IMG/VR virus record: IMGVR_UViG_3300045988_152398
Direction: 5' to 3' (one strand)
DNA length: 57,578 nucleotides
From: a virus
Each line of letters starts with the position of its first letter. Positions within the stretch are counted from its first letter, which is position 1. The notes under the pieces were generated by a model. It was not told the origin of the DNA, did no database searches, and saw only the letters and a list, made by a program, of their open reading frames with translations. The translations under genes were made by a program, and so were the position numbers. This document shows positions 4,081-50,785 of this stretch, in pieces.

Positions 4081-4380
4081 ATGCCAAAATTTCAGAGTAT
4101 GGAAAAAATAGTATCGGAAGTGTTGGAAGGTAACTTACAAGCAAGGAAAGACGATTATGTTCTGATGTTATGTGTTTGTGAAAAAATATGCCCTGAAATT
4201 CTCAATTATCCATTTTGGGTAGTAATGAAAAATCACTACACAAATAAGTTGCCTAATTGGGAAACGGTGAGCCGTTGTAGGCGTAAAATCCAAGAAAAAC
4301 GCCCTGATTTAGTATCATCTGAAACGGAAAAAAACCGACGCAAAGAGGAAGAACAATACAGGGAATACGCACATAGTTAG
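4081..4380 (+). CDS. hypothetical protein
   Basis: ORF with AGGAGG RBS. Confidence 0.6.
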   Translation: MPKFQSMEKIVSEVLEGNLQARKDDYVLMLCVCEKICPEILNYPFWVVMKNHYTNKLPNWETVSRCRRKIQEKRPDLVSSETEKNRRKEEEQYREYAHS

Positions 4381-4392
4381 GAGAGATAAACA

Positions 4393-4698
4393 ATGCTTGA
4401 TAGTGAATATAGTGAGCAATTCGACAAAGAACGGAAATATCGTATTGAAATATCATATTACAAATACGGCTCTGCAAGAGATAATTTCGCAAGTGGTAGA
4501 GTGGACGCACTTGCAACGGCTGAAAAGTGTCTTGAAGCGTTTAAAAAAGACCATAATACCGAACACCTTGTTGACGCCGCAAATTACCTGATGTTTAGAT
4601 ATATGTACCCTATGCCGAATGAGCACTTTATGGCAACTGACAGCGACGGAAGCGTTGGAACGGTTGGAACGCCTATCAATATGGAACACGGCGTATAA
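4393..4698 (+). CDS. hypothetical protein, possibly all-alpha NTP-pyrophosphohydrolase related
   Basis: KYGSARDNF...HLVDAANYLMF resembles the KYG...aaNyl pattern of MazG-like phage proteins. The similarity is weak. Confidence 0.3.
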   Translation: MLDSEYSEQFDKERKYRIEISYYKYGSARDNFASGRVDALATAEKCLEAFKKDHNTEHLVDAANYLMFRYMYPMPNEHFMATDSDGSVGTVGTPINMEHGV

Positions 4699-4742
4699 AA
4701 TGTGCCACAATGAAACAAATTCAATTTATTTGTAAAAATATA

Positions 4743-4771
4743 TTGACAATTAGCGGAAATTATTGTAATAT
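4743..4771 (+). promoter_or_regulatory. sigma-A type promoter TTGACA-17-TAATAT
   Basis: TTGACA at 4743-4748, 17-nt spacer, TAATAT at 4766-4771 with TG immediately upstream. Confidence 0.7.
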
Positions 4772-5289: not shown

Positions 5290-6006
5290 ATGTATGACAG
5301 TATTGTAAAAGATATTCAGAATATCATTGACAACACAGCAAAAACATATGAGATTGACGGGAAAGTATATACAAATAGTCCGCTATCTCTTGTAAGACAC
5401 AAGGACAGAGCAAAAGAAATTGTTTTTAACGATTTAAGTAGCCTTATTCCTATTATGAAGAATGAATGTGAAAAATTCAATTTACCTTTTTATCTTGTTA
5501 TTGAAGATTATAACAAAGTAGAGGTTTATACAGCCCTTGACGGTGACAAGGATAGAGAACACCCATATGGTGTAAAATGCGACATTAACCTATTTCATTT
5601 TGATTTTCCATATAACTATGAAAACTTTGTTATTGCTTTGCGTTCCTTGTTTGTACAGAACGAAAATAGCGAAAATCTATTGAAATTTTTGAAAACAGTT
5701 ACAAGTAACAATTCTGTTGAAGTTGAGGACGACGGCATTACTCAAAAAGTAACATCAAGTAAGGGAATTTTGGGCGGTAAAGCAACCGTTTCACCAATTC
5801 AAAGACTAACACCATTCCGCACATTTACAGAGATTGAACAGCCTACAAGTGAATTTCTATTTAGAATTATGAATAATGGTTCTTTTGCACTTTATGAAGC
5901 AGACGGCGGGGCTTGGAAAAAACAAGCTAAAGCAAATATTAAAGAGTATTACTCAAAAGCATTTGCAACTGAAATTAAAAAGGGAACAATTATTATTGTT
6001 GGCTAA
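5290..6006 (+). CDS. hypothetical protein (238 aa)
   Basis: Tightly coupled to the upstream gene. No family recognised. Confidence 0.6.
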   Translation: MYDSIVKDIQNIIDNTAKTYEIDGKVYTNSPLSLVRHKDRAKEIVFNDLSSLIPIMKNECEKFNLPFYLVIEDYNKVEVYTALDGDKDREHPYGVKCDINLFHFDFPYNYENFVIALRSLFVQNENSENLLKFLKTVTSNNSVEVEDDGITQKVTSSKGILGGKATVSPIQRLTPFRTFTEIEQPTSEFLFRIMNNGSFALYEADGGAWKKQAKANIKEYYSKAFATEIKKGTIIIVG

Positions 6007-6016
6007 TTAATATCAC

Positions 6017-6047
6017 GGGGTACTTGATTCAAAAGATTGAGTACCCC
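6017..6047 (+). other. 12-13 bp hairpin upstream of the replication genes
   Basis: GGGGTACTTGATT..AAAA..GATTGAGTACCCC. No U-tract follows. Confidence 0.4.
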
Positions 6048-6069
6048 ACCGCTAAATGAGGTGTAAACA

Positions 6070-6774
6070 ATGGCAGAAAACGAAAGAGATTTTAAAGGCG
6101 TATGGATACCTAAAGTAGTATGGCTTGATACAAGATTAAACGCTCTTGATAAAGTTATATTAACTGAAATTGATAGTTTAGATTGTGGCGAAAAAGGTTG
6201 TTACGCAAGCAACAAATATATAGCGGATTTTTGCCAATGTAGCGAAACAAAAGTATCAAAATCAATCTCACTATTAATTAAATTAGGATATTTATATGTT
6301 CAAAGTTTTGACGGACGACAACGAGAGTTGAAAAGCAGACTTGCAAATTTAACAAGTCAGCCTTGCAAAAAAGACAAGGCAGAATTGCAGAATATGCAAG
6401 AAAGTAATACATCTAATAATACAACTAATAATAAAAAGAAAGTAAGTAAGAAGAATACCTTTGATGAAATCATTTTGAATTACTCAAAAGATGAAGAAAC
6501 AATAGATTTGTTAAAGGAATGGTTAAAAGTCAGAAAAGCAAAAAGGGCGGCAATGACTGACAGAGCTATTAAGATGAATATTGATAAACTTGATATCCTT
6601 GCAAAGCAAAGTAATATGTCAGTAAATCAGTATTTATCGGAGGTAATTTGCAGAGGTTGGGCGGCTTTTTATGCTATCAATACATACAGCAATACAGGAT
6701 ATAACAAACAGTCAAAAAATGACGGTTGGTGCTTTAACCCTGATATGGAAGATGATTTAGCTTTTATCAAGTAA
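6070..6774 (+). CDS. replication initiator / replisome organizer (wHTH N-terminus, DnaD-like C-terminus)
   Basis: FKGVWIPKVVWLD..LNALDKVILTEIDSLD...CYASNKYIADF is typical of Firmicute phage replication proteins. It precedes the loader gene. Confidence 0.65.
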   Translation: MAENERDFKGVWIPKVVWLDTRLNALDKVILTEIDSLDCGEKGCYASNKYIADFCQCSETKVSKSISLLIKLGYLYVQSFDGRQRELKSRLANLTSQPCKKDKAELQNMQESNTSNNTTNNKKKVSKKNTFDEIILNYSKDEETIDLLKEWLKVRKAKRAAMTDRAIKMNIDKLDILAKQSNMSVNQYLSEVICRGWAAFYAINTYSNTGYNKQSKNDGWCFNPDMEDDLAFIK

Positions 6775-6793: not shown

Positions 6794-7633
6794 ATGAGTG
6801 TGCAAAACGCTGTTGAAAGTTTGATAGAGAGAAGTAAAACGGCTATCCCTACCAACGATTGCGATTATATAGGCGAGGACGGATTACTATATTGCGGTAA
6901 ATGTCACACCAAAAAGCAAACAGAAGTAATGTTATTTGGCACTATACGCCGTCCTATGTGCCTTTGTAAATGCGAAGCTGAAAAGAGAGATAAAGAGGAA
7001 GCCGAAAGAAAACAGGCTGACTTTGGCAGAAAAATAAAAGATTTAAGGCGTACAGGATTTCCTGAAAGTAATATGCAGGAATGGACTTTTGAAAACGACG
7101 ATATGACGAATAGCCGAGTAACAAACGCTATGAAAAAATATGTTGAAAACTTTGACGAAATGAAAAAGCAGGGCAAAGGCTTATTGCTTTATGGTAGTTG
7201 TGGAACAGGCAAAACATACGCCGCTTGTGAAGTTGCTAATGCTTTGATTGATAAAGGTTATCCCGTATTAGTAACAAACTTTGCAAGGATAATAAACGCT
7301 TTGCAAGCGACTTTTGAAAAGCAAGAATACATAGATAGTTTTAACCGTTTTTCTTTGCTTGTGATTGACGATTTAGGGATTGAAAGAAACACAGAGTTTG
7401 CAAAAGAACAGGTTTTCAATATCATAGACAGCCGCTACCGTGCAGGATTGCCAATGATTATTACTACCAATCTATCAATAGATAAGATTAAAAAACCTGA
7501 TGATATAGAGAACGGGCGAATTTACGACCGTATTCTTGAAAGGTGTTTCCCTATTGAAGTTTCAGGGCAGAGCCGCCGCAGAAAAGCTATAAGGGAAAGC
7601 TATGACGATATGAAAAATTTACTTGAATTGTAA
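6794..7633 (+). CDS. DnaC/IstB-like AAA+ helicase loader
   Basis: Walker A GSCGTGKTY, Walker B LLVIDDLG, Cys-rich N-terminus. Confidence 0.85.
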   Translation: MSVQNAVESLIERSKTAIPTNDCDYIGEDGLLYCGKCHTKKQTEVMLFGTIRRPMCLCKCEAEKRDKEEAERKQADFGRKIKDLRRTGFPESNMQEWTFENDDMTNSRVTNAMKKYVENFDEMKKQGKGLLLYGSCGTGKTYAACEVANALIDKGYPVLVTNFARIINALQATFEKQEYIDSFNRFSLLVIDDLGIERNTEFAKEQVFNIIDSRYRAGLPMIITTNLSIDKIKKPDDIENGRIYDRILERCFPIEVSGQSRRRKAIRESYDDMKNLLEL

Positions 7634-12032: not shown

Positions 12033-12437
12033 ATGCGAGAACTTGAACAATGTTTAGAGTTGAGAAGAAAAATCAACGGTATCAATGAGCGGATAGAGGA
12101 ATTAAGGTCAAGCATTGAAACACCAAAATGTCAAATTTTATCCGATATGCCAAAGGGTGGCGGTGAACGCAACACCATTGAAGAATATATTATTAAATTG
12201 GAGCGTTTGGAGCAAAAAAAAGCGGTTATTGAGCAACACCTTGTGTCGAATTGGCGTACTATATCGGCAGACCTTAAACAAAACGGCGTATTTGATGATG
12301 TTATACTAATGCTGAAATACCGTTTTTTCTACGGCTACAGGTGGAAAAAGTGTGCCGTACATATGCAATGGAATGAAAACAAATGCTTCCGTGAATACAG
12401 GGCTTTTCTATCAAAAATGCACAAAAAGGATAACTAA
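12033..12437 (+). CDS. late-gene transcriptional regulator (ArpU/RinA/DUF1492 class)
   Basis: SDMPKGGGERNTIEEYI motif plus a C-terminal HTH-like region. Located immediately upstream of terS, as in Gram-positive phages. Confidence 0.6.
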   Translation: MRELEQCLELRRKINGINERIEELRSSIETPKCQILSDMPKGGGERNTIEEYIIKLERLEQKKAVIEQHLVSNWRTISADLKQNGVFDDVILMLKYRFFYGYRWKKCAVHMQWNENKCFREYRAFLSKMHKKDN

Positions 12438-12456: not shown

Positions 12457-12485
12457 TTGAAAAAAAGTTAATATTATACTATAAT
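12457..12485 (+). promoter_or_regulatory. near-consensus promoter TTGAAA-17-TATAAT
   Basis: 12457-12462 and 12480-12485. Lies 20 nt after the regulator's stop codon. Confidence 0.7.
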
Positions 12486-12737: not shown

Positions 12738-13295
12738 ATGAATAATATTGATTGGGATAAAATCAGAGAAGAATACATAAACACAAACGCTACATACAAA
12801 AGCCTTGCGGAAAAATACGATATTCCGTTTTACCGATTGAAAAGGCAAGCGTCAAGCGAAAAATGGTTTGACGAGAAGAAAAAAGTACAGCCCGCAGGGG
12901 AAAGAGGTCTTAACAATAACCTTGTTCCAATGAGTGAACGAAGCATAGAAGAAGCCCGTGCAATAGGGCGAAAAGGTGGCATAAATTCAGGCAAAGCCCG
13001 CAGGCAAAGAAGAAAAGCCCGTGAATGTATGGAAGAAATCCTATCTTGTGATGTTCAAGAGGGCAAAGTTAAAGAAGCACTTAAAAAAATGGGAATTAAA
13101 GAGGAAAACATACAAAACACAATGCTTTTAATGTTTTCTCTGTTTCAAAGTGGTGTTAAAACAGGTGACGCAGGAACGGTCAAGACTATCCTTGAAATTG
13201 CAGGAGATATGGATATTCAGCAGGAACAGCAAGCACCTACAATTAATATAAATGTGTCAGCGGCGACGCAGGAAGATATAGAAGATGATTATTAG
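12738..13295 (+). CDS. terS: terminase small subunit
   Basis: N-terminal HTH (YKSLAEKYDIPFYRLKRQASSEKW), basic centre, position at the head of the late operon. Confidence 0.7.
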   Translation: MNNIDWDKIREEYINTNATYKSLAEKYDIPFYRLKRQASSEKWFDEKKKVQPAGERGLNNNLVPMSERSIEEARAIGRKGGINSGKARRQRRKARECMEEILSCDVQEGKVKEALKKMGIKEENIQNTMLLMFSLFQSGVKTGDAGTVKTILEIAGDMDIQQEQQAPTININVSAATQEDIEDDY

Positions 13296-13312
13296 CGAAA
13301 GGGGGTGAGAAT

Positions 13313-13483
13313 ATGGCAACAGTTAAGCAGAATATTGCAAGAGCCACAGGTGCAGGAAGTGCGGCTACACAGTACAAAAAGTCAGCCCGTGTTTCAGCCC
13401 GTGCGTTTGGTCTTGCGGGTAAATTCGGTGCAAGAGGTAGAGCGGCGGCTAAAAAAGGCAATGTTGGAAGTATGGGAGGTTAA
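13313..13483 (+). CDS. 56-aa Ala/Gly/Lys/Arg-rich protein
   Basis: Own translation MATVKQNIARATGAGSAATQYKKSARVS.... GGGGGTGA RBS. Preferred over the overlapping track ORF 13305..13496. Confidence 0.45.
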   Translation: MATVKQNIARATGAGSAATQYKKSARVSARAFGLAGKFGARGRAAAKKGNVGSMGG

Positions 13484-13488
13484 TAAGT

Positions 13489-14151
13489 GTGAGTAACTTA
13501 TTATTCGACCCTATTAAAACGCAAGCAAGCGTAACGGATAGTGTTATTGTCGCTTTTTCGGGCGGTAAAGATAGCATTGTTACGCTTGATTTGTGTTTCC
13601 GTTATTTTAAAAGGGTCGTTCCGTTTTTTATGTATCTTGTACCTGACTTAGAATTTCAAGAAAAATTGTTAAGGCAGTACGAAAAGAGATACAACACGGA
13701 AATCATACGCATACCGCATTTTGAATGTTCAAATTTTCTAAAATACGGAAGTTTTACCTTGTATGATGATAATGTTGATATTGTAGGCATTAAAGATACA
13801 TATGAGTATTTAAGAGAAAAGACGGGCATACATTGGATTGCCGCAGGAGAGCGGGCAAAAGACAGTATTGTAAGAAATGCTATGATTAAGAAAAGCGGTA
13901 GCATAGATTACAAAAGAGGACGCTTTTATCCCGTTGCCTATTGGAGCAAACAGGAAATATTACACTACATAAAACTGAAAAAGCTATATTTAAGCCCTGA
14001 ACAGAAAAAGTTAGGGTTTTCTTTTCGTAGTTTAGCAGGTAGTGAATTATCCGCTATTAAGGATATGTACCCTAAAGACTATGAGAAGATATTGAAAGTC
14101 TATCCGTTCGCAGGTGCAGGAGTTGAACGGTTTGAAAAATACGGACTATAA
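13489..14151 (+). CDS. PP-loop ATPase of the PAPS-reductase/DndC/IbrA family
   Basis: VAFSGGKDS PP-loop motif. ~220 aa. GTG start 8 nt after GGGAGG. Confidence 0.75.
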   Translation: MSNLLFDPIKTQASVTDSVIVAFSGGKDSIVTLDLCFRYFKRVVPFFMYLVPDLEFQEKLLRQYEKRYNTEIIRIPHFECSNFLKYGSFTLYDDNVDIVGIKDTYEYLREKTGIHWIAAGERAKDSIVRNAMIKKSGSIDYKRGRFYPVAYWSKQEILHYIKLKKLYLSPEQKKLGFSFRSLAGSELSAIKDMYPKDYEKILKVYPFAGAGVERFEKYGL

Positions 14152-14166
14152 AAAGGGGGGTAAAGA

Positions 14167-14835
14167 ATGGCAAATAGTAAATATCAAAAGTTTACAATTC
14201 AAACCATAAACAGAGCTGATATTAAAAACGCCGAATATAACCCACGCATTATGGATAAGGAAGCAAAGAAAAGATTAAAAGCAGGCTTGAAAAAGCACGG
14301 GCTTGTATCTACTTTGACTTGGAACAAAAGAACAGGCAACCTTGTAGGAGGACACCAAAGGCTTGAACAGCTTGACGCATTAGAGAAGAACAAGGACTAT
14401 TCTCTTGATGTTTGCGTTATTGATGTTGACGAAGCAGAAGAAGCCGTTTTGAATGTTCAGCTTAACAATCCGTCAATGCAGGGTGATTGGGATTTAGATA
14501 AACTTGCTTTGATTACCGAAGATTACGGCGTTGGCTTTGAAGAAATGGGATTTACGCCGTTAGATGTGGATTTAATGTTTGACGGTGACGAAAGATTTAC
14601 ACAAATGTTTGAAACCCCCGAAGCCGAAGAAGTGAAGCAGGGATTAGCGGAAGTTAAGGAAGCGAGGAAGCAAGGCAAAGAACGCCTTGAAGAACGGAAT
14701 AATATAAACTTTTATTCTGTTATCGTTTTTGAGAGCGAAGAAGCGAAAAAAGAGTTTTACAAAAAGATAAATGTTCCGATTTACGAGGAATATTTGACGG
14801 CTGATAAGATTTACAGATTGCAAGACAAAGAATAA
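14167..14835 (+). CDS. ParB/Srx N-terminal-domain protein (IbrB-like)
   Basis: YNPRIM...GLVSTLTWNKRTGNLVGGHQRLEQL. Acidic C-terminal half. Confidence 0.7.
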   Translation: MANSKYQKFTIQTINRADIKNAEYNPRIMDKEAKKRLKAGLKKHGLVSTLTWNKRTGNLVGGHQRLEQLDALEKNKDYSLDVCVIDVDEAEEAVLNVQLNNPSMQGDWDLDKLALITEDYGVGFEEMGFTPLDVDLMFDGDERFTQMFETPEAEEVKQGLAEVKEARKQGKERLEERNNINFYSVIVFESEEAKKEFYKKINVPIYEEYLTADKIYRLQDKE

Positions 14836-14861
14836 AGGCGGTTTTTACACCGCCTTTTTTG
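14834..14861 (+). terminator. intrinsic terminator
   Basis: AAAGGCGG-loop-CCGCCTTTTTT. Confidence 0.8.
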
Positions 14862-14907: not shown

Positions 14908-15093
14908 TCAGATTTTGATAGCGTTTGTAAAATTTGGTATGTCAATATATGAGTTTTCAACAATTAAGTCTGTTTCAGCCCAAAAATCAAATACGCTGTC
15001 AAAAATGCCGTGTGTTTTGTAAAAATCGTTGAAAACCTCTTTTGACGGTACTATTTCGCCTGTTTCTTTGTTCATTAAGTAAATATCATTCAT
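14908..15093 (-). CDS. hypothetical small protein (61 aa)
   Basis: Internal ATG (MNDIYLMNKETGE...) follows GGGGG. Confidence 0.55.
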   Translation of the reverse strand: MNDIYLMNKETGEIVPSKEVFNDFYKTHGIFDSVFDFWAETDLIVENSYIDIPNFTNAIKI

Positions 15094-15109
15094 TTTTAAA
15101 CCCCCTATA

Positions 15110-15457
15110 TTAAAAGTGTGTATATAAGCCTGTAACGCTTGTAAAGATGTCTTGAAGCATATCACAATAGCAATCATTGTATGTTTTGATTGTTTCTGTT
15201 TTTTCGTTTCTTGTGGTTACTTTACAAGTCTTATGATTTACGCTGATTTTAAAAGGTGTAAATTTGATAAATTCAATGTCGTAAAGGTCAAGACCGTTTA
15301 CCGTGATTTTTACTGTATTAGCCTTGCTTGCATTTTTACCAATGTTAAACTTGATACCGTTTTCAAGTGCTACAAAGTTTTTAGCACCTGTCATTGCTAC
15401 AAAACGAGTGCCGCCGAGCTGATTTAAGATTGTTTGTGCTGTCATTGTATTTGTCAT
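15110..15457 (-). CDS. hypothetical protein (115 aa), conserved phage/plasmid-type small protein
   Basis: Starts MTNTMTAQTILNQLGGTRFVAMTGAKNF after AGAGGTAA. The longer track ORF covers the promoter. Confidence 0.6.
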   Translation of the reverse strand: MTNTMTAQTILNQLGGTRFVAMTGAKNFVALENGIKFNIGKNASKANTVKITVNGLDLYDIEFIKFTPFKISVNHKTCKVTTRNEKTETIKTYNDCYCDMLQDIFTSVTGLYTHF

Positions 15458-15497: not shown

Positions 15498-15590
15498 ACA
15501 TATTTGTAGTATAATTCAATTAGCAAAATAGCCAAACTTAAAGTAAATTCTTTGTGTATTTTGCCTATTGATATTATAACATTAAAGTGA

Positions 15591-15626
15591 TATAATATAG
15601 ATACAACAAAGAAAGAGGTATTGAAG
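15591..15626 (+). promoter_or_regulatory. promoter-leader cassette, copy b (short form)
   Basis: TTGATA-17-TATAATATAGATACAACAAAGAAAGAGGTA. Confidence 0.6.
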
Positions 15627-15821
15627 ATGAAAGTTGAATTTGCATATTTAGATGTTTGCAGAAAGCAGATAGAAGAACACACAAACACACTTTTAGACTT
15701 GCGTGATAAGTATGAAGTTGTTGTAGATGAAGAAAAGGTTACAAAACTCATAGAAGCACTTGAATATTTCAAAAGTGCATTAGAAACGACACCGATTGCA
15801 CAAGAGGGGGTAACGGTATGA
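15627..15821 (+). CDS. hypothetical small protein
   Basis: ATG at 15627 in track ORF 15621..15821. Confidence 0.55.
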   Translation: MKVEFAYLDVCRKQIEEHTNTLLDLRDKYEVVVDEEKVTKLIEALEYFKSALETTPIAQEGVTV

Positions 15822-15997
15822 CAATAAATACAAAATATGATTTAGGGCAAGAGGTGTATTATGGCGATAAATTCGACCGACAAAAAGGCGAAATCTTAGA
15901 AATAATCATTGACGGCACATTCAACAACATTCCGAAATATGTTGTTGAATATAACGGTAATATATGGGCAGAAGATGAAATCAGCGACAAAGAATAA
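15818..15997 (+). CDS. hypothetical small protein (59 aa)
   Basis: Own translation MTINTKYDLGQEVYYGDKF.... ATGA coupling. Confidence 0.5.
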   Translation: MTINTKYDLGQEVYYGDKFDRQKGEILEIIIDGTFNNIPKYVVEYNGNIWAEDEISDKE

Positions 15998-16017
15998 ATA
16001 AAAAGGCAACAGACAAA

Positions 16018-16046
16018 AGCGGTTGAGTAAATCAACCGTTTTTTTG
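16018..16046 (+). terminator. intrinsic terminator
   Basis: CGGTTGA-GTAAA-TCAACCG followed by T8. Confidence 0.8.
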
Positions 16047-16061: not shown

Positions 16062-17294
16062 GTGACAATTATTGATATTGATGTAAAAGTAAATCCCGCT
16101 TATTTGCCCTATATGAACAAAAAGCAATTCACACAAATATTTTTCGGTGGTTCATCAAGCGGCAAATCTTATTTTTTAGCACAAAAGGTTGTGTTGGATA
16201 ACCTGAACGGTGCAAACTATCTTATTTGCCGTAATGTAGCAAGCACTATTAACAAATCAACCTATAACGAGGTATGCAAAGCTATATCTAATATGGGGCT
16301 TATGGCATACTACAGAATTAACAAATCAAGTATGACTATTACTTGCACCCTGAACGGGCGACAGATTTTATTTGCGGGCTTGGACGACGCAGAGAAAATC
16401 AAGTCAATAACGCCTGCTGATAGTGTTTTGCATAGGGTGTGGATAGAGGAAGCAACAGAGGTAAAGTATTCAGCCTATAAACAGCTAACAAAGCGTTTGA
16501 GAGGTCATAGCGATATTTCAAAAGGCGTTATTTTATCTTTTAACCCTATCTTAAAATCCCATTGGATATATAAAACCTTTTTTGGCGGTTGGCAAGATGA
16601 TAGAAACTACTATGAAGATGATAATTTATCAATACTCAAAACAACATACAAAGATAATTTATTTCTGACCGAAGATGATATAAAGCAGTTGGAAGATGAA
16701 ACAGACCCGTATTATTACAATGTTTATTCGTTGGGTAATTGGGGCATTTTGGGGCATATCATTTTTCAGAATTGGCGTGTTGAGGATTTAAGCGACAGGA
16801 TAAATCAATTCGATAAAATTTATATAGGTATGGACTTTGGTTGGAATGACCCGACAGCAATACTTAAACTTCATTTAGACCGAAACAGAAAAAAGATTTA
16901 TATTATCGACGAAGTATATCAACAATATATGTCGGATAATGAGCTTTTGAGAACAGCAAAAGGTTTTTGCAAAAACCAGTATGTTATATGCGACAGTGCC
17001 GAGCCAAAGATGATTGATTTTTTATCTTCTAATGATGTAAGAGCAATCGGAGCAGTAAAGGGGGCAGATAGCATAATGCGTGGAATAAGGTGGTTACAAG
17101 ACTATGAAATTATAATTGATATACATTGCCAAAACTTTAAGAATGAGATAGAAAGTTATCATTTTACAGAAGATAAATATGGTAATGTATTAGAAAAGCC
17201 CGCAGGAGGTAACGACCACCTTATGGACTGTATGCGTTATGCGTTAAATGACGATATATTAGCGGCAGAGTGTAAAGCAGGAAAACGCTTATAA
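16062..17294 (+). CDS. terL: terminase large subunit (PBSX/XtmB-like)
   Basis: Walker A FFGGSSSGKS about 30 aa from the N-terminus. Nuclease-half acidic motifs. 410 aa. Confidence 0.85.
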   Translation: MTIIDIDVKVNPAYLPYMNKKQFTQIFFGGSSSGKSYFLAQKVVLDNLNGANYLICRNVASTINKSTYNEVCKAISNMGLMAYYRINKSSMTITCTLNGRQILFAGLDDAEKIKSITPADSVLHRVWIEEATEVKYSAYKQLTKRLRGHSDISKGVILSFNPILKSHWIYKTFFGGWQDDRNYYEDDNLSILKTTYKDNLFLTEDDIKQLEDETDPYYYNVYSLGNWGILGHIIFQNWRVEDLSDRINQFDKIYIGMDFGWNDPTAILKLHLDRNRKKIYIIDEVYQQYMSDNELLRTAKGFCKNQYVICDSAEPKMIDFLSSNDVRAIGAVKGADSIMRGIRWLQDYEIIIDIHCQNFKNEIESYHFTEDKYGNVLEKPAGGNDHLMDCMRYALNDDILAAECKAGKRL

Positions 17295-17343: not shown

Positions 17344-17441
17344 TTTCAATAGTGGATAGTGATTGCAACACGACAAAGCGGTTACTCTTGCCGCTTTCCA
17401 CTAATCTTTATTGCAAGAGCGTTTTATTAAGAGGTAAAACA

Positions 17442-18062
17442 ATGATTATTTACAAAGCAACAAATTTAATCAATGGAAAAGTCTATATAGGACAGACTGT
17501 GCGTTCTCTTGATGAAAGAATGAGAGAGCATTTAAGGCATAGTAAAACAGCTTTTGACAAAGCACTTAAAAAATATGGTATTTCAAATTTCCGTATAGAA
17601 ACAATAGATTGTGCTACATCTATTGATGAATTAAATGCAAAAGAAAAGTATTGGATTGATATATATAATGCGTTTGGCAAAAGCGGCTATAATATGTGTG
17701 AGGGTGGCGGTAATACTATAGGCTATCATCATACAGAAGAGGCTAAAAGAAAAATGAGTGTTGCTAAAAAACAAATGTATAAAGGTAATGAAAATCCGTT
17801 TTTTGGTAAAAAACATACACCTAAAAGCAAAGCAAAAATGAGCCAAACAAGAACAGGTAGAATAATAACTCCTGAATGGAAAGAACATATTTCGCAAGGC
17901 TCACAAAGCAAAAGAAAAGTACATAATATAGAAACAGACGAGATATTTAATTCCATAAGAGAAGCCGCAGACAAATACGGTGTTCCACCAACGCATATTA
18001 CAAGAGTGTGCAAAGGAAAAAGAAAAAGGACAGGTGGGTATCATTGGGAATATGTATCATAA
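17442..18062 (+). CDS. GIY-YIG homing endonuclease (free-standing)
   Basis: IIYKATNLINGKVYIGQT. NUMOD3-like GYHHTEEAKRKMS / GKKHTPKSKAKMS repeats. C-terminal HTH. Confidence 0.85.
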   Translation: MIIYKATNLINGKVYIGQTVRSLDERMREHLRHSKTAFDKALKKYGISNFRIETIDCATSIDELNAKEKYWIDIYNAFGKSGYNMCEGGGNTIGYHHTEEAKRKMSVAKKQMYKGNENPFFGKKHTPKSKAKMSQTRTGRIITPEWKEHISQGSQSKRKVHNIETDEIFNSIREAADKYGVPPTHITRVCKGKRKRTGGYHWEYVS

Positions 18063-23274: not shown

Positions 23275-23348
23275 AGGCAATTAGCATAAAGGTAATGCGG
23301 CGGGCTTTGAACCCGCACAAAGAGGGTCAGTACCTCTATTGCCTGCCA
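23275..23348 (+). tRNA. tRNA-Gln (anticodon UUG), CCA encoded
   Basis: Hand-folded cloverleaf. Acceptor AGGCAAT/ATTGCCT, U8. D arm GCAT-AAAGGTA-ATGC. Anticodon arm GCGGG-CUUUGAA-CCCGC. 4-nt variable loop. T arm AGAGG-GTCAGTA-CCTCT. G73 followed by CCA. Confidence 0.8.
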
Positions 23349-50347: not shown

Positions 50348-50785
50348 ATGAAAGCAATATCAATACGAAACCCATATGCACATATGATTTTATGCGGTGA
50401 GAAAGAATTTGAGTTTAGGACTTGGCAAACTGACTACAGAGGTGATTTACTGATTTGCAGTAGTGCAAACCCGAAAATCAAAAATACAATTTGCGGTCAC
50501 GCACTTTGCATTGTAAGGCTTAACGATATTACAAAGGTAACGCCGAAAAATTACCGTGATTTTGGGCTTGATAGAAGCGATTTAGACAATAATTTATACG
50601 CTTGGCAGTTGACAGATATAAGAGTGATTAAACCGTTTCCCGTTAAAGGCAAGCTCAATTTTTACAATGTTGATGATGAACTAATTGAAATCATTGACAA
50701 CGGCGACGACAGCTTAACAGATGAAGAAGCCGAAGCACTCTACAAGAAGTATATCGAACCATTATTGTACAAAGGCAAGAAATAA
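50348..50785 (+). CDS. ASCH (PUA-like) domain protein
   Basis: MKAISIRNPYAHMILCGEKEFEFRTW... pattern. Confidence 0.65.
   Translation: MKAISIRNPYAHMILCGEKEFEFRTWQTDYRGDLLICSSANPKIKNTICGHALCIVRLNDITKVTPKNYRDFGLDRSDLDNNLYAWQLTDIRVIKPFPVKGKLNFYNVDDELIEIIDNGDDSLTDEEAEALYKKYIEPLLYKGKK

Follow-up and report, generated by a model that had tools for sequence, protein, structure and literature searches.

IbrA and IbrB of Escherichia coli are described as proteins that co-activate or regulate the expression of prophage genes (eib), and IbrA consists of a PAPS_reduct domain followed by DUF3440. DndC, SspD and BrxP carry cysteine-ligated 4Fe-4S clusters and a cysteine dyad, and have cysteine desulfurase and ABC ATPase partners. 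For the ParB-Tls locus of phages (Iyer et al. 2013), modification of the phage DNA during packaging is predicted, according to the passages that cite it in PMC4738411 and PMC6536676. In one phage, ParB was described to activate a thymine dioxygenase that works on double-stranded DNA (PMC13229309). In a Vibrio crassostreae podovirus, a fusion of a PAPS domain with a Dam methylase confers escape from Dnd, and this fusion was transferred together with one adjacent gene whose function is not known (Piel et al., bioRxiv 10.1101/2021.05.05.442762). No other phage PAPS-like gene is known to have an anti-defence phenotype in experiments. Here, we analyzed a locus in the virus record IMGVR_UViG_3300045988_152398 of IMG/VR, a stretch of 57,578 nucleotides (the window), in which three coupled genes on the same strand (13313-14835) encode a small basic protein of 56 residues ending in Gly-Gly, a PP-loop protein of 220 residues and a ParB-type protein of 222 residues.

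As in the ParB-Tls locus, a ParB-like gene and a gene for a candidate nucleic-acid-modifying enzyme are clustered upstream of terL. The cassette is apparently of a known kind, ParB-Tls-like with the domain content of IbrAB, and apparently new in one component, the protein with the Gly-Gly (GG) tail. We tentatively read it, at a little short of an even chance, as a late-expressed accessory operon for DNA modification and anti-restriction, of the ParB-Tls class, in a temperate gut phage of Oscillospirales. For comparison, we gathered 38 related loci (designated by L numbers), 36 of which had enough downstream sequence to be informative; they are phylogenetically clustered, and counts overstate their independence. 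A preliminary description of the locus had named the three open reading frames (ORFs), the motifs VAFSGGKDS and GGHQR, and an IbrAB architecture. The ORF listing bore out the genes and motifs, and the pairing of a PAPS-reductase-type PP-loop protein with a ParB/Srx protein was found to be real and conserved in the informative loci, with the exception of L011. Domain content and order are indeed those of IbrAB, but strict IbrA membership did not hold: DUF3440 gave no match at E ≤ 0.01, PF01507 was the sole domain found, and the protein ends at residue 220.

The PP-loop motif VAFSGGKDS occupies residues 21-29. The match to Pfam PAPS_reduct (PF01507) had an E-value of 1.7e-11 and 44.9 bits (cut-off, 22.5), and two PHROG 'PAPS reductase' families matched at 1.6e-21 and 4.4e-15, the profile of phrog_424 reaching approximately 160 positions N-terminal and 100 positions C-terminal beyond the match. 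The NCBIfam models for CysH, CysD, LarE and TilS scored far below their cut-offs (CysH, 19.7 bits vs 154), and a PADLOC match to BrxP was confined to the PP-loop (residues 16-46). In an alignment of 12 homologues (85% down to 25% identity) from phages of Oscillospirales, Lactobacillus, Bacteroides, Riemerella, Pasteurella, Gordonia and Cutibacterium, the residues S24, G26 and K27 of the PP-loop as well as E65, G120, D125, P148, W152, P195, D197 and P206 were invariant, and D28, P76, H77, S126, R129, S178 and Y198 nearly so. The intact PP-loop and the conserved substrate-binding motifs count in favor of a DNA-modifying operon, as do the structural neighbors given below.

No conserved cysteine was found in the 12-sequence alignment, nor was the C-terminal ECGLH-type motif; the window protein ends in ...VYPFAGAGVERFEKYGL. 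The protein is therefore not a PAPS or APS reductase, and hence not the sulfate-assimilation enzyme that would have spoken against the preliminary description. Phage papers mostly annotate the enzyme as a gene of sulfur or host metabolism, and the family names in Pfam and PHROG would likewise suggest an auxiliary metabolic gene whose product, a PAPS reductase of the assimilatory type, would enhance the sulfur metabolism of the host. Given the missing catalytic cysteine motif, the low CysH and CysD scores, and the obligatory coupling to a ParB-type partner at a packaging locus, we regard this proposal as barely credible, and the sequence effectively refutes it.

The missing cysteines likewise mean that the Fe-S and persulfide chemistry of DndC, SspD, BrxP, TtuA and NcsA is not available to the protein. 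This bears on a DndC/SspD-like phosphorothioation enzyme, or a tRNA or DNA thiolase for which a thiocarboxylated GG tail would be the sulfur donor. Such an enzyme would fit the common PAPS_reduct membership with DndC, SspD and BrxP, the structural neighbors described below, and the resemblance of the tail to those of sulfur carriers. There is, however, neither an Fe-S site nor a persulfide dyad, the cassette holds no E1-like gene, and no cysteine desulfurase or DndD/SspC-type ATPase was present in the cassette or its flanks in the window and the related loci. Sulfur chemistry is thus a very improbable explanation, and phosphorothioate, one of the DNA modifications that the preliminary description proposed to look for, is unlikely for the same lack of cysteines.

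In a search of the PDB by sequence profile, CysD was the best match (1zun, 1e-4), followed by CysH. The AlphaFold2 model (predicted local distance difference test, pLDDT, 73.5; predicted template modeling score, pTM, 0.74) had the tRNA thiolases NcsA and TtuA as top Foldseek matches (approximately 1e-6), followed by APS/PAPS reductases (E of approximately 1e-4 to 1e-5), LarE, NAD synthetase, QueC and MnmA. Judged by profiles and model, the protein is best classed as a generic cysteine-less PP-loop ATP pyrophosphatase of the PAPS-reductase/CysD clan, which activates the alpha-phosphate of ATP and has no residues for redox or sulfur-relay chemistry; its neighbors adenylate carboxylates or the bases of nucleic acids. 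It belongs to a large family of 1015 clusters at 90% identity (E ≤ 1e-5) and 1280 representatives at 50% identity, most of them stand-alone proteins of 215-300 residues; among cultured phages, the family is rare (26-29 of 50,697 records). One uncultured human-gut phage, MT835636.1, carries two PAPS-like paralogues (4113-4769 and 5628-6305) approximately 0.9 kb apart.

The ParB-type protein carries GGHQR at residues 61-65 and matched PHROG ParB-like families at 3.7e-62 and 1.1e-23. Pfam did not recognize it, and its relatives reached ParB_N below threshold (best 1.8e-4, 21.9 vs 26.3 bits). When the profile of the N-terminal 115 residues was compared with the PDB, ParB of H. pylori (4umk, 1.9e-6), Spo0J of B. 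subtilis (1.1e-5) and Noc (1e-4) were found, and GHQR aligned with the box II sequence GERR. The top 14 Foldseek matches were all ParB, Noc or PadC, but they came from a low-quality model, with E ≥ 0.013 and TM of approximately 0.2-0.3. No helix-turn-helix (HTH) or ParB C-terminal domain family was detected by Pfam in the protein or its relatives, and no parA lies nearby in the window. Without HTH, dimerization domain and ParA, identification as a canonical partition ParB fails.

Instead, the protein consists of a ParB/Srx NTP-binding domain (residues 1-110, approximately), an acidic linker and a C-terminal domain of about 50 residues (approximately 176-222). The N-domain belongs to the same subfamily as that of phage ParB-methyltransferase fusions, with A..YNPR, GHQ and E..LN..N invariant and G.W(D/N) conserved; both the window protein and the fusions match phrog_498 and PADLOC MTase_II. 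In the C-terminal domain, F188 is invariant and Y209 nearly so. This domain is the sole part that the window protein has in common with the partner proteins in Pasteurella phage Pm86, Gordonia phage Morgana and Cutibacterium phage CA1NRNZ, all of which are without a ParB domain. Since it alone is always kept in the partners, even in those lacking the ParB domain, it is likely to be the docking module for the PP-loop enzyme. The linker (14467-14640, residues 101-158, approximately) is nearly invariant among close homologues (74-94% identity; W108, D109, L113, M127-G128-F129, D133, D135, D139-G140-D141 and F144), has an AlphaFold pLDDT below 50, and begins with a motif (G.WD..KLA) that also occurs in the ParB-methyltransferase fusions. 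Possibly, other proteins bind here, and the basic tailed ones would be an example.

The IbrAB precedent suggests another function, namely transcriptional co-activation of late or prophage genes, in which the ParB-like protein would bind DNA and the PP-loop protein would be an ATP-dependent cofactor. Besides the literature on IbrA and IbrB, the position of the cassette at the start of the late region, where the gene of an ArpU-like late regulator immediately precedes it, and the description of DndB, a member of the ParB family, as an ATP-modulated regulator speak for this idea. However, the ParB-type protein has no detectable HTH or other sequence-specific DNA-binding domain, the conserved catalytic PP-loop and substrate motifs favor an enzyme, DUF3440 as the hallmark of IbrA is absent, and close relatives that have kept the same late genes have a partly deleted or dispensable cassette (L011). 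We consider co-activation distinctly unlikely. A distant blastn search of E. coli genomes with the Pm86 homologue gave no match.

Behind the PAPS-like gene, all informative loci but L011 have a gene encoding the C-terminal domain, and 33 of these partners also bear the ParB N-domain. The phages concerned belong to hosts from several phyla (Oscillospirales, Lactobacillus, Raoultibacter, Bacteroides, Riemerella, Pasteurella and actinobacteria). The two genes lie 0-1 kb apart, and the larger inserts that were tested proved to be HNH homing endonuclease genes: such genes lie between the PAPS-like and ParB genes in L005 (7144-7629) and L010 (6905-7456), and L013 contains a homologue of the L005 insert (6798-7265), judged by N-terminal sequence similarity. 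The junction thus appears to be a recurrent insertion site, with genes that tolerate uncoupling. In L011 (2235-2432), the ParB gene is truncated after approximately 56 codons and terL is directly next to it, while the PAPS-like and small genes are intact.

The preliminary description had inferred a role in packaging from the position between the terminase subunits. This position is not conserved. terL lies within 6 kb downstream in at least 26 loci, but terS varies in its placement: a terS-like gene is found 5' of the cassette in the clade of the window, beside terL in L013, and 3' of ParB in LR1, RAP44 and BS-TP2, so that the position between terS and terL is incidental. What is conserved is placement at the head of the late/packaging region, which is also the pre-terminase position of the ParB-methyltransferase fusions. 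The ParB-like protein might still be a factor that binds or nicks the pac site and aids the terminase, with the other genes as passengers. ParB/Srx proteins are able to nick DNA according to passages in the literature, the cassette adjoins terS and terL in many phages, and here it shares one operon with a terS-like gene. Yet it accompanies unrelated terminase families (Terminase_3 in the window, Terminase_6N in L041-L043), 20 other loci anchored on terL are without it, homing endonucleases insert between its genes with no apparent harm, the ParB deletion variant L011 exists, and the strict coupling to the PP-loop enzyme would be left unexplained. A packaging accessory is therefore improbable.

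A gene for an ASCH-domain protein is directly adjacent to the cassette in 15 of the 38 loci, often antisense right after ParB (L041-L043). ASCH, a PUA-like domain, was described as a modified-base binder, and the protein is a possible reader or eraser partner of the cassette.

The small ORF in front of the PP-loop gene had been treated as an oddity of its GC-rich surroundings, but it is conserved and, of all components of the cassette, the most distinctive. The window protein (MATVKQNIARATGAGS...KKGNVGSMGG) has a tail that diverged from the family consensus. Homologues are found directly 5' of the PAPS-like gene in approximately 30 loci, including a contig of Raoultibacter (Actinomycetota), and more divergent forms occur in Bacteroides phage BS-TP2 and Riemerella phage RAP44. 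Family members have 42-96 residues and a hypervariable middle; the two motifs that they retain are Q.RIN(K/R)ATG, close to the N-terminus, and (F/Y)RRKSxGGxGG, with the stop codon directly behind it. Between close pairs, synonymous divergence (pS) exceeds nonsynonymous divergence (pN): 0.39 vs 0.00 for L006 and L009, 0.33 vs 0.08 for L004 and L005, and 0.13 vs 0.01 for L016 and L018, with pN/pS of 0.00-0.24. We conclude that the small ORF is a real gene and that purifying selection, strong between these pairs, acts on it. A database search found 101 family clusters, all unnamed and without Pfam domains, and our literature search returned no paper that characterizes the PP-loop subfamily or mentions the tailed proteins. 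The family is apparently undescribed, and we regard it as the main new finding of this analysis.

All members of the Firmicutes and Actinobacteria types end in GG, whereas Bacteroidota versions end in ...ANGAI or ...ANGSNG. Each cassette has one to three tailed proteins. The additional ones are small to mid-sized, basic and, outside the tail, nearly unrelated to the first family (hmmsearch E = 0.004-1.7). They are encoded between the PAPS-like and ParB genes in L006, L009, L012, L014 and L036, and in Lactobacillus-type loci, which have two each at this position, or just 3' of ParB in L002, L022 and L023. Examples of tails are ...KKRSSGGAGG, ...KRLKSSGGSGG, ...KGSTGSRGG and ...KRSSFGSKGG. The strict tail pattern was present in 39 of 341 plus-strand ORFs of the cassette region, while none of the 3589 ORFs in the remaining parts of these loci had it (Fisher test, 5e-43, a value that overstates the significance because related loci are not independent). 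The 20 terL-anchored loci and two ParB-methyltransferase loci, all without a PAPS-like gene, contained no match.

The small gene is translationally coupled to the PP-loop gene, and its last two Gly codons overlap the Shine-Dalgarno (SD) sequence of the latter. Could the terminal GG reflect nothing but the SD sequence? All four bases (A, G, T and C) occur among loci at the third position of the penultimate Gly codon, and RRKS upstream of the terminal glycines is kept through synonymous changes, from which it follows that selection acts at least partly on the protein. An SD-only explanation is weakened by the GGT and GGC codons and by this synonymous variation. With 42-96 residues and highly basic sequences of variable length, the tailed proteins are probably disordered rather than of the beta-grasp fold. 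The tailed protein is best read as a candidate substrate, donor or cofactor of the cassette. N-terminal extensions of some long PAPS-like representatives, considered as peptide-enzyme fusions, resemble low-complexity gene-call artefacts and were not used. One representative, P0299 (284 residues), has an in-frame extension (residues 1-50) with the tail-like sequence ...RKRSSNGAAV..., which is ambiguous between a fusion and a gene-calling artefact; if it is truly a fusion, this would speak against a free carboxylate at the C-terminus being required.

Adenylation of a terminal carboxylate has precedents in NAD synthetase, LarE, AsnB-type amidation and the geometry of TtuA-TtuB. The cassette could be directed at a protein or peptide: the C-terminal glycine of the tail would be adenylated in the manner of E1, PafA or AsnB-type enzymes, and the tail would then be converted to an amide or thiocarboxylate or joined to an acceptor, either a protein or a small molecule, with the ParB-type protein localizing or regulating the reaction. 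A motif that is strictly C-terminal, common to otherwise dissimilar proteins and present in one to three copies per cassette would be expected of such a substrate, as would translational coupling to the PP-loop gene, and among the structural neighbors are TtuA, complexed with the GG-tailed carrier TtuB, and the carboxylate-adenylating LarE and NAD synthetase. On the other hand, the cassette showed no genes for E2/E3-like proteins, proteases or sulfur donors, the tailed proteins are short, basic and probably disordered instead of beta-grasp, the Bacteroidota versions have no GG end, and the relationships to ParB-methyltransferase and PAPS-Dam fusions point to DNA. We judge a protein-directed system unlikely. 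A conjugation system, in which the PP-loop enzyme would adenylate the C-terminal Gly and ParB would guide attachment of the tail to phage DNA or protein, appears rather unlikely as well. In it, a base amine or DNA end, for example, would be acylated by the tailed protein, and the frequently adjacent antisense ASCH protein would be the reader or an amidohydrolase eraser. If true, it would amount to ubiquitin- or Pup-like tagging, or to DNA peptidylation as an anti-defence coat applied before packaging.

We favor DNA as the target because of the ParB-methyltransferase fusions, the PAPS-Dam anti-Dnd fusion of the Vibrio phage together with the ParB/PAPS-like pairing seen here, the activation of a phage thymine dioxygenase by ParB, and the association with ASCH. 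In the proposed mechanism, the ParB N-domain, with box II kept as GHQR, would target or open phage DNA or activate its partner, the same role as in the ParB-methyltransferase fusions and the ParB-dependent phage thymine dioxygenases, while its C-terminal domain would dock the PP-loop enzyme. The latter would adenylate a substrate oxygen with ATP, releasing pyrophosphate. The obligatory third partner would be the small basic protein, whose RRKSxGGxGG tail is strictly C-terminal: either the terminal carboxylate is adenylated, as donor or substrate, or the tailed protein may be a DNA-binding cofactor. As a result, replicated phage DNA would be modified before packaging and resist host restriction or modification-sensing defences. 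A role in DNA modification or conflict near packaging, as the preliminary description had it, agrees with the cited accounts of the ParB-Tls locus (PMC4738411, PMC6536676) and with the anti-Dnd fusion (bioRxiv 10.1101/2021.05.05.442762).

Several observations weigh against a DNA-modifying operon of this design. In phages with this subfamily, DNA modification is itself a prediction. Box II is only partly canonical, and the AlphaFold2 model of the ParB-type protein is poor (pLDDT 58, pTM 0.38). The PAPS domain of the Vibrio anti-Dnd protein was not retrieved by tblastn with the window protein or the Pm86 homologue and belongs to a different subfamily. To our knowledge, the sole phenotype of IbrAB is prophage gene activation. 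The significance of the tail enrichment is overstated by the non-independent loci, the last glycine codons of the tail overlap an SD sequence, and the Bacteroidota proteins do not end in GG. Finally, the lineages of Pm86 and of the actinophages (Gordonia and Cutibacterium) have neither the ParB domain nor any tailed protein, and therefore neither is universally required by the enzyme.

The features around the cassette are listed in Table 1. The intergenic gaps are 5 nt (small ORF to PP-loop gene) and 15 nt (PP-loop gene to ParB gene), and all three starts are preceded by an SD sequence (AAGGGGGTGA before 13313, GGGAGG before 13489). The upstream promoter-like site is the probable start of the operon; promoter-like sites were called by consensus match alone, and their count is no higher than in shuffled sequence. 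The terS-like protein matched phrog_2412 (function not annotated) at 5.3e-22, with marginal PHROG matches of its N-terminus to terS; its KGG match was below threshold and disregarded, and so was a match to Pfam DUF6261. The homologue of this gene in L013 lies directly 5' of terL. Of the terminase labels given previously, that of terL is solid and that of terS weaker. The ParB gene ends 1.2 kb before terL. Between the two lie a terminator, the antisense pair, another promoter-like site and another terminator, so that the terS-like, small, PP-loop and ParB genes look like one discrete transcription unit with no read-on into terL. The antisense pair sits in the slot that holds the antisense ASCH gene in many relatives.

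Table 1. Features of the cassette and its surroundings in the window.
Feature	Position	Strand	Remarks
ArpU-type regulator gene	12033-12437		phrog_36; precedes operon
Promoter-like site TTGAAA-17-TATAAT	12457..12485	+	11/12 consensus matches; just 3' of ArpU-like late-regulator gene
Gene for DNA-binding, terS-like protein, 185 residues	12738..13295	+	First of operon; HTH-like N-terminal region, RKGGxxSGKxRR region
Small basic Gly-Gly-tailed protein, 56 residues	13313..13483	+	ATG start, strong SD
PP-loop protein, 220 residues	13489..14151	+	GTG start; SGGKDS encoded at 13558-13575
ParB-type protein, 222 residues	14167..14835	+	ATG start; GGHQR encoded at 14347-14361
Strong bidirectional intrinsic terminator	14834..14857	both	9-bp stem, 5 GC pairs, T-runs on each strand; immediately 3' of ParB gene, closing the operon
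Two antisense genes	14908-15442	-	89 and approximately 110 residues; the latter matches phrog_9437 (function not annotated)
Strong promoter-like site TTGATA-17-TG-TATAAT plus two tiny plus-strand genes	15568-15997	+	After antisense pair
Second terminator	16015-16043		Just before terL
terL	16062..17294	+	Pfam Terminase_3 1.1e-52, Terminase_3C 7.9e-16
ASCH-domain protein	50348..50785	+	Distant from cassette; tblastn, Pfam ASCH 1.2e-8

GC content is 0.455-0.485 at 13200-13500, compared with roughly 0.30-0.38 in most flanking windows, owing to Ala, Gly and Arg codons. As described previously, three overlapping frames on the two strands are open in this patch: 13305-13496 (+), 13313-13483 (+) and 13243-13461 (-). 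The alternative frames (63 residues on the plus strand, 72 on the minus strand) were rejected since, unlike the 56-residue frame, they are without conservation across loci. A structured RNA or riboswitch was rejected as well: the fold z-score was +1.66, and Rfam gave no match on the patch at the gathering threshold and chance-level matches alone at a relaxed E-value.

With respect to its source, megablast found no near-identical cultured phage, and near-identical contigs in IMG/VR were L004 and L024. The genome matched metagenome-assembled genomes of Acutalibacteraceae and Oscillospiraceae, plus one of Raoultibacter. From these matches and its gene content, we take the window to be the genome of a temperate siphovirus-type phage of gut Clostridia (Oscillospirales). 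Between terL and the portal gene lies a GIY-YIG/NUMOD3 homing endonuclease gene (17352-18062, plus strand; Pfam). L004 and L024, the closest relatives, have approximately 118 bp at this site, and their terL is only 84% identical to that of the window, against 96-100% for the flanking genes, a pattern consistent with recent insertion by homing and co-conversion of terL. A single phage tRNA-Gln (UUG) gene is located at 23275-23348 (+), within the structural gene region.

Phage 'PAPS reductases' are routinely annotated as genes of sulfur metabolism. A large subfamily of them cannot be reductases and forms a fixed cassette with ParB near packaging genes. The tailed family provides a concrete, testable candidate for the substrate or cofactor with which the PP-loop chemistry of IbrAB-like and ParB-Tls systems could be reconstituted in vitro. 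If the cassette modifies DNA, it would represent a widespread anti-restriction strategy of human-gut phages; should it attach peptides to proteins or DNA, the system would be biochemically new.

Compared with the described systems, the cassette resembles E. coli IbrA/IbrB in that a PAPS-reductase-family protein is followed by a ParB-family protein in a prophage-type element. It differs in its enzyme, which has 220 residues and no DUF3440, and in its ParB-type protein, on which the Pfam ParB_N model does not reach its threshold. With DndC, SspD and BrxP acting alongside DndB, it shares a PP-loop protein of the PAPS_reduct family and a ParB-superfamily protein in a DNA-modification context, predicted in the case of the cassette, but not the conserved cysteines. 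TtuA and NcsA, which act with TtuB, SAMP or Urm1, are the best structural neighbors of the PP-loop protein, and in both cases a PP-loop enzyme goes together with a small protein ending in Gly-Gly, which in the thiolase systems reaches into the active site. Unlike these thiolases, the cassette enzyme has neither Fe-S cysteines nor zinc fingers; its partner, unlike TtuB, SAMP and Urm1, is short, basic and probably disordered instead of beta-grasp, and E1 and desulfurase genes are missing. The C-terminal Gly-Gly of the tail is nevertheless shared with ubiquitin-like and ThiS-MoaD-TtuB carriers and with Pup (Gly-Gly, or GGQ/E, in those systems).

As in the Vibrio anti-Dnd protein, a phage PAPS-reductase-type domain would be physically coupled to DNA-modification machinery in the cassette. 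The Vibrio protein, however, is fused to a methylase and is not paired with ParB, and its gene lies away from the terminase locus, with no tailed small protein reported. From the original description of ParB-Tls, the cassette differs in gene order, as its enzyme gene precedes ParB. Compared with the ParB-methyltransferase fusions, especially those with N6/N4-methyltransferases, its enzyme is a separate PP-loop protein instead of a fused S-adenosylmethionine-dependent methyltransferase, its ParB protein carries a C-terminal docking domain of its own, and it has one to three GG-tailed proteins whereas the two fusion loci examined have none. With ParB-Tls and these fusions it nevertheless shares the niche after the late regulator and before terS/terL, and with the fusions also the ParB N-domain subfamily (YNPR, GGHQR, E..LN..LN and G.WD) and the predicted principle by which a ParB domain is combined with an enzyme that modifies DNA.

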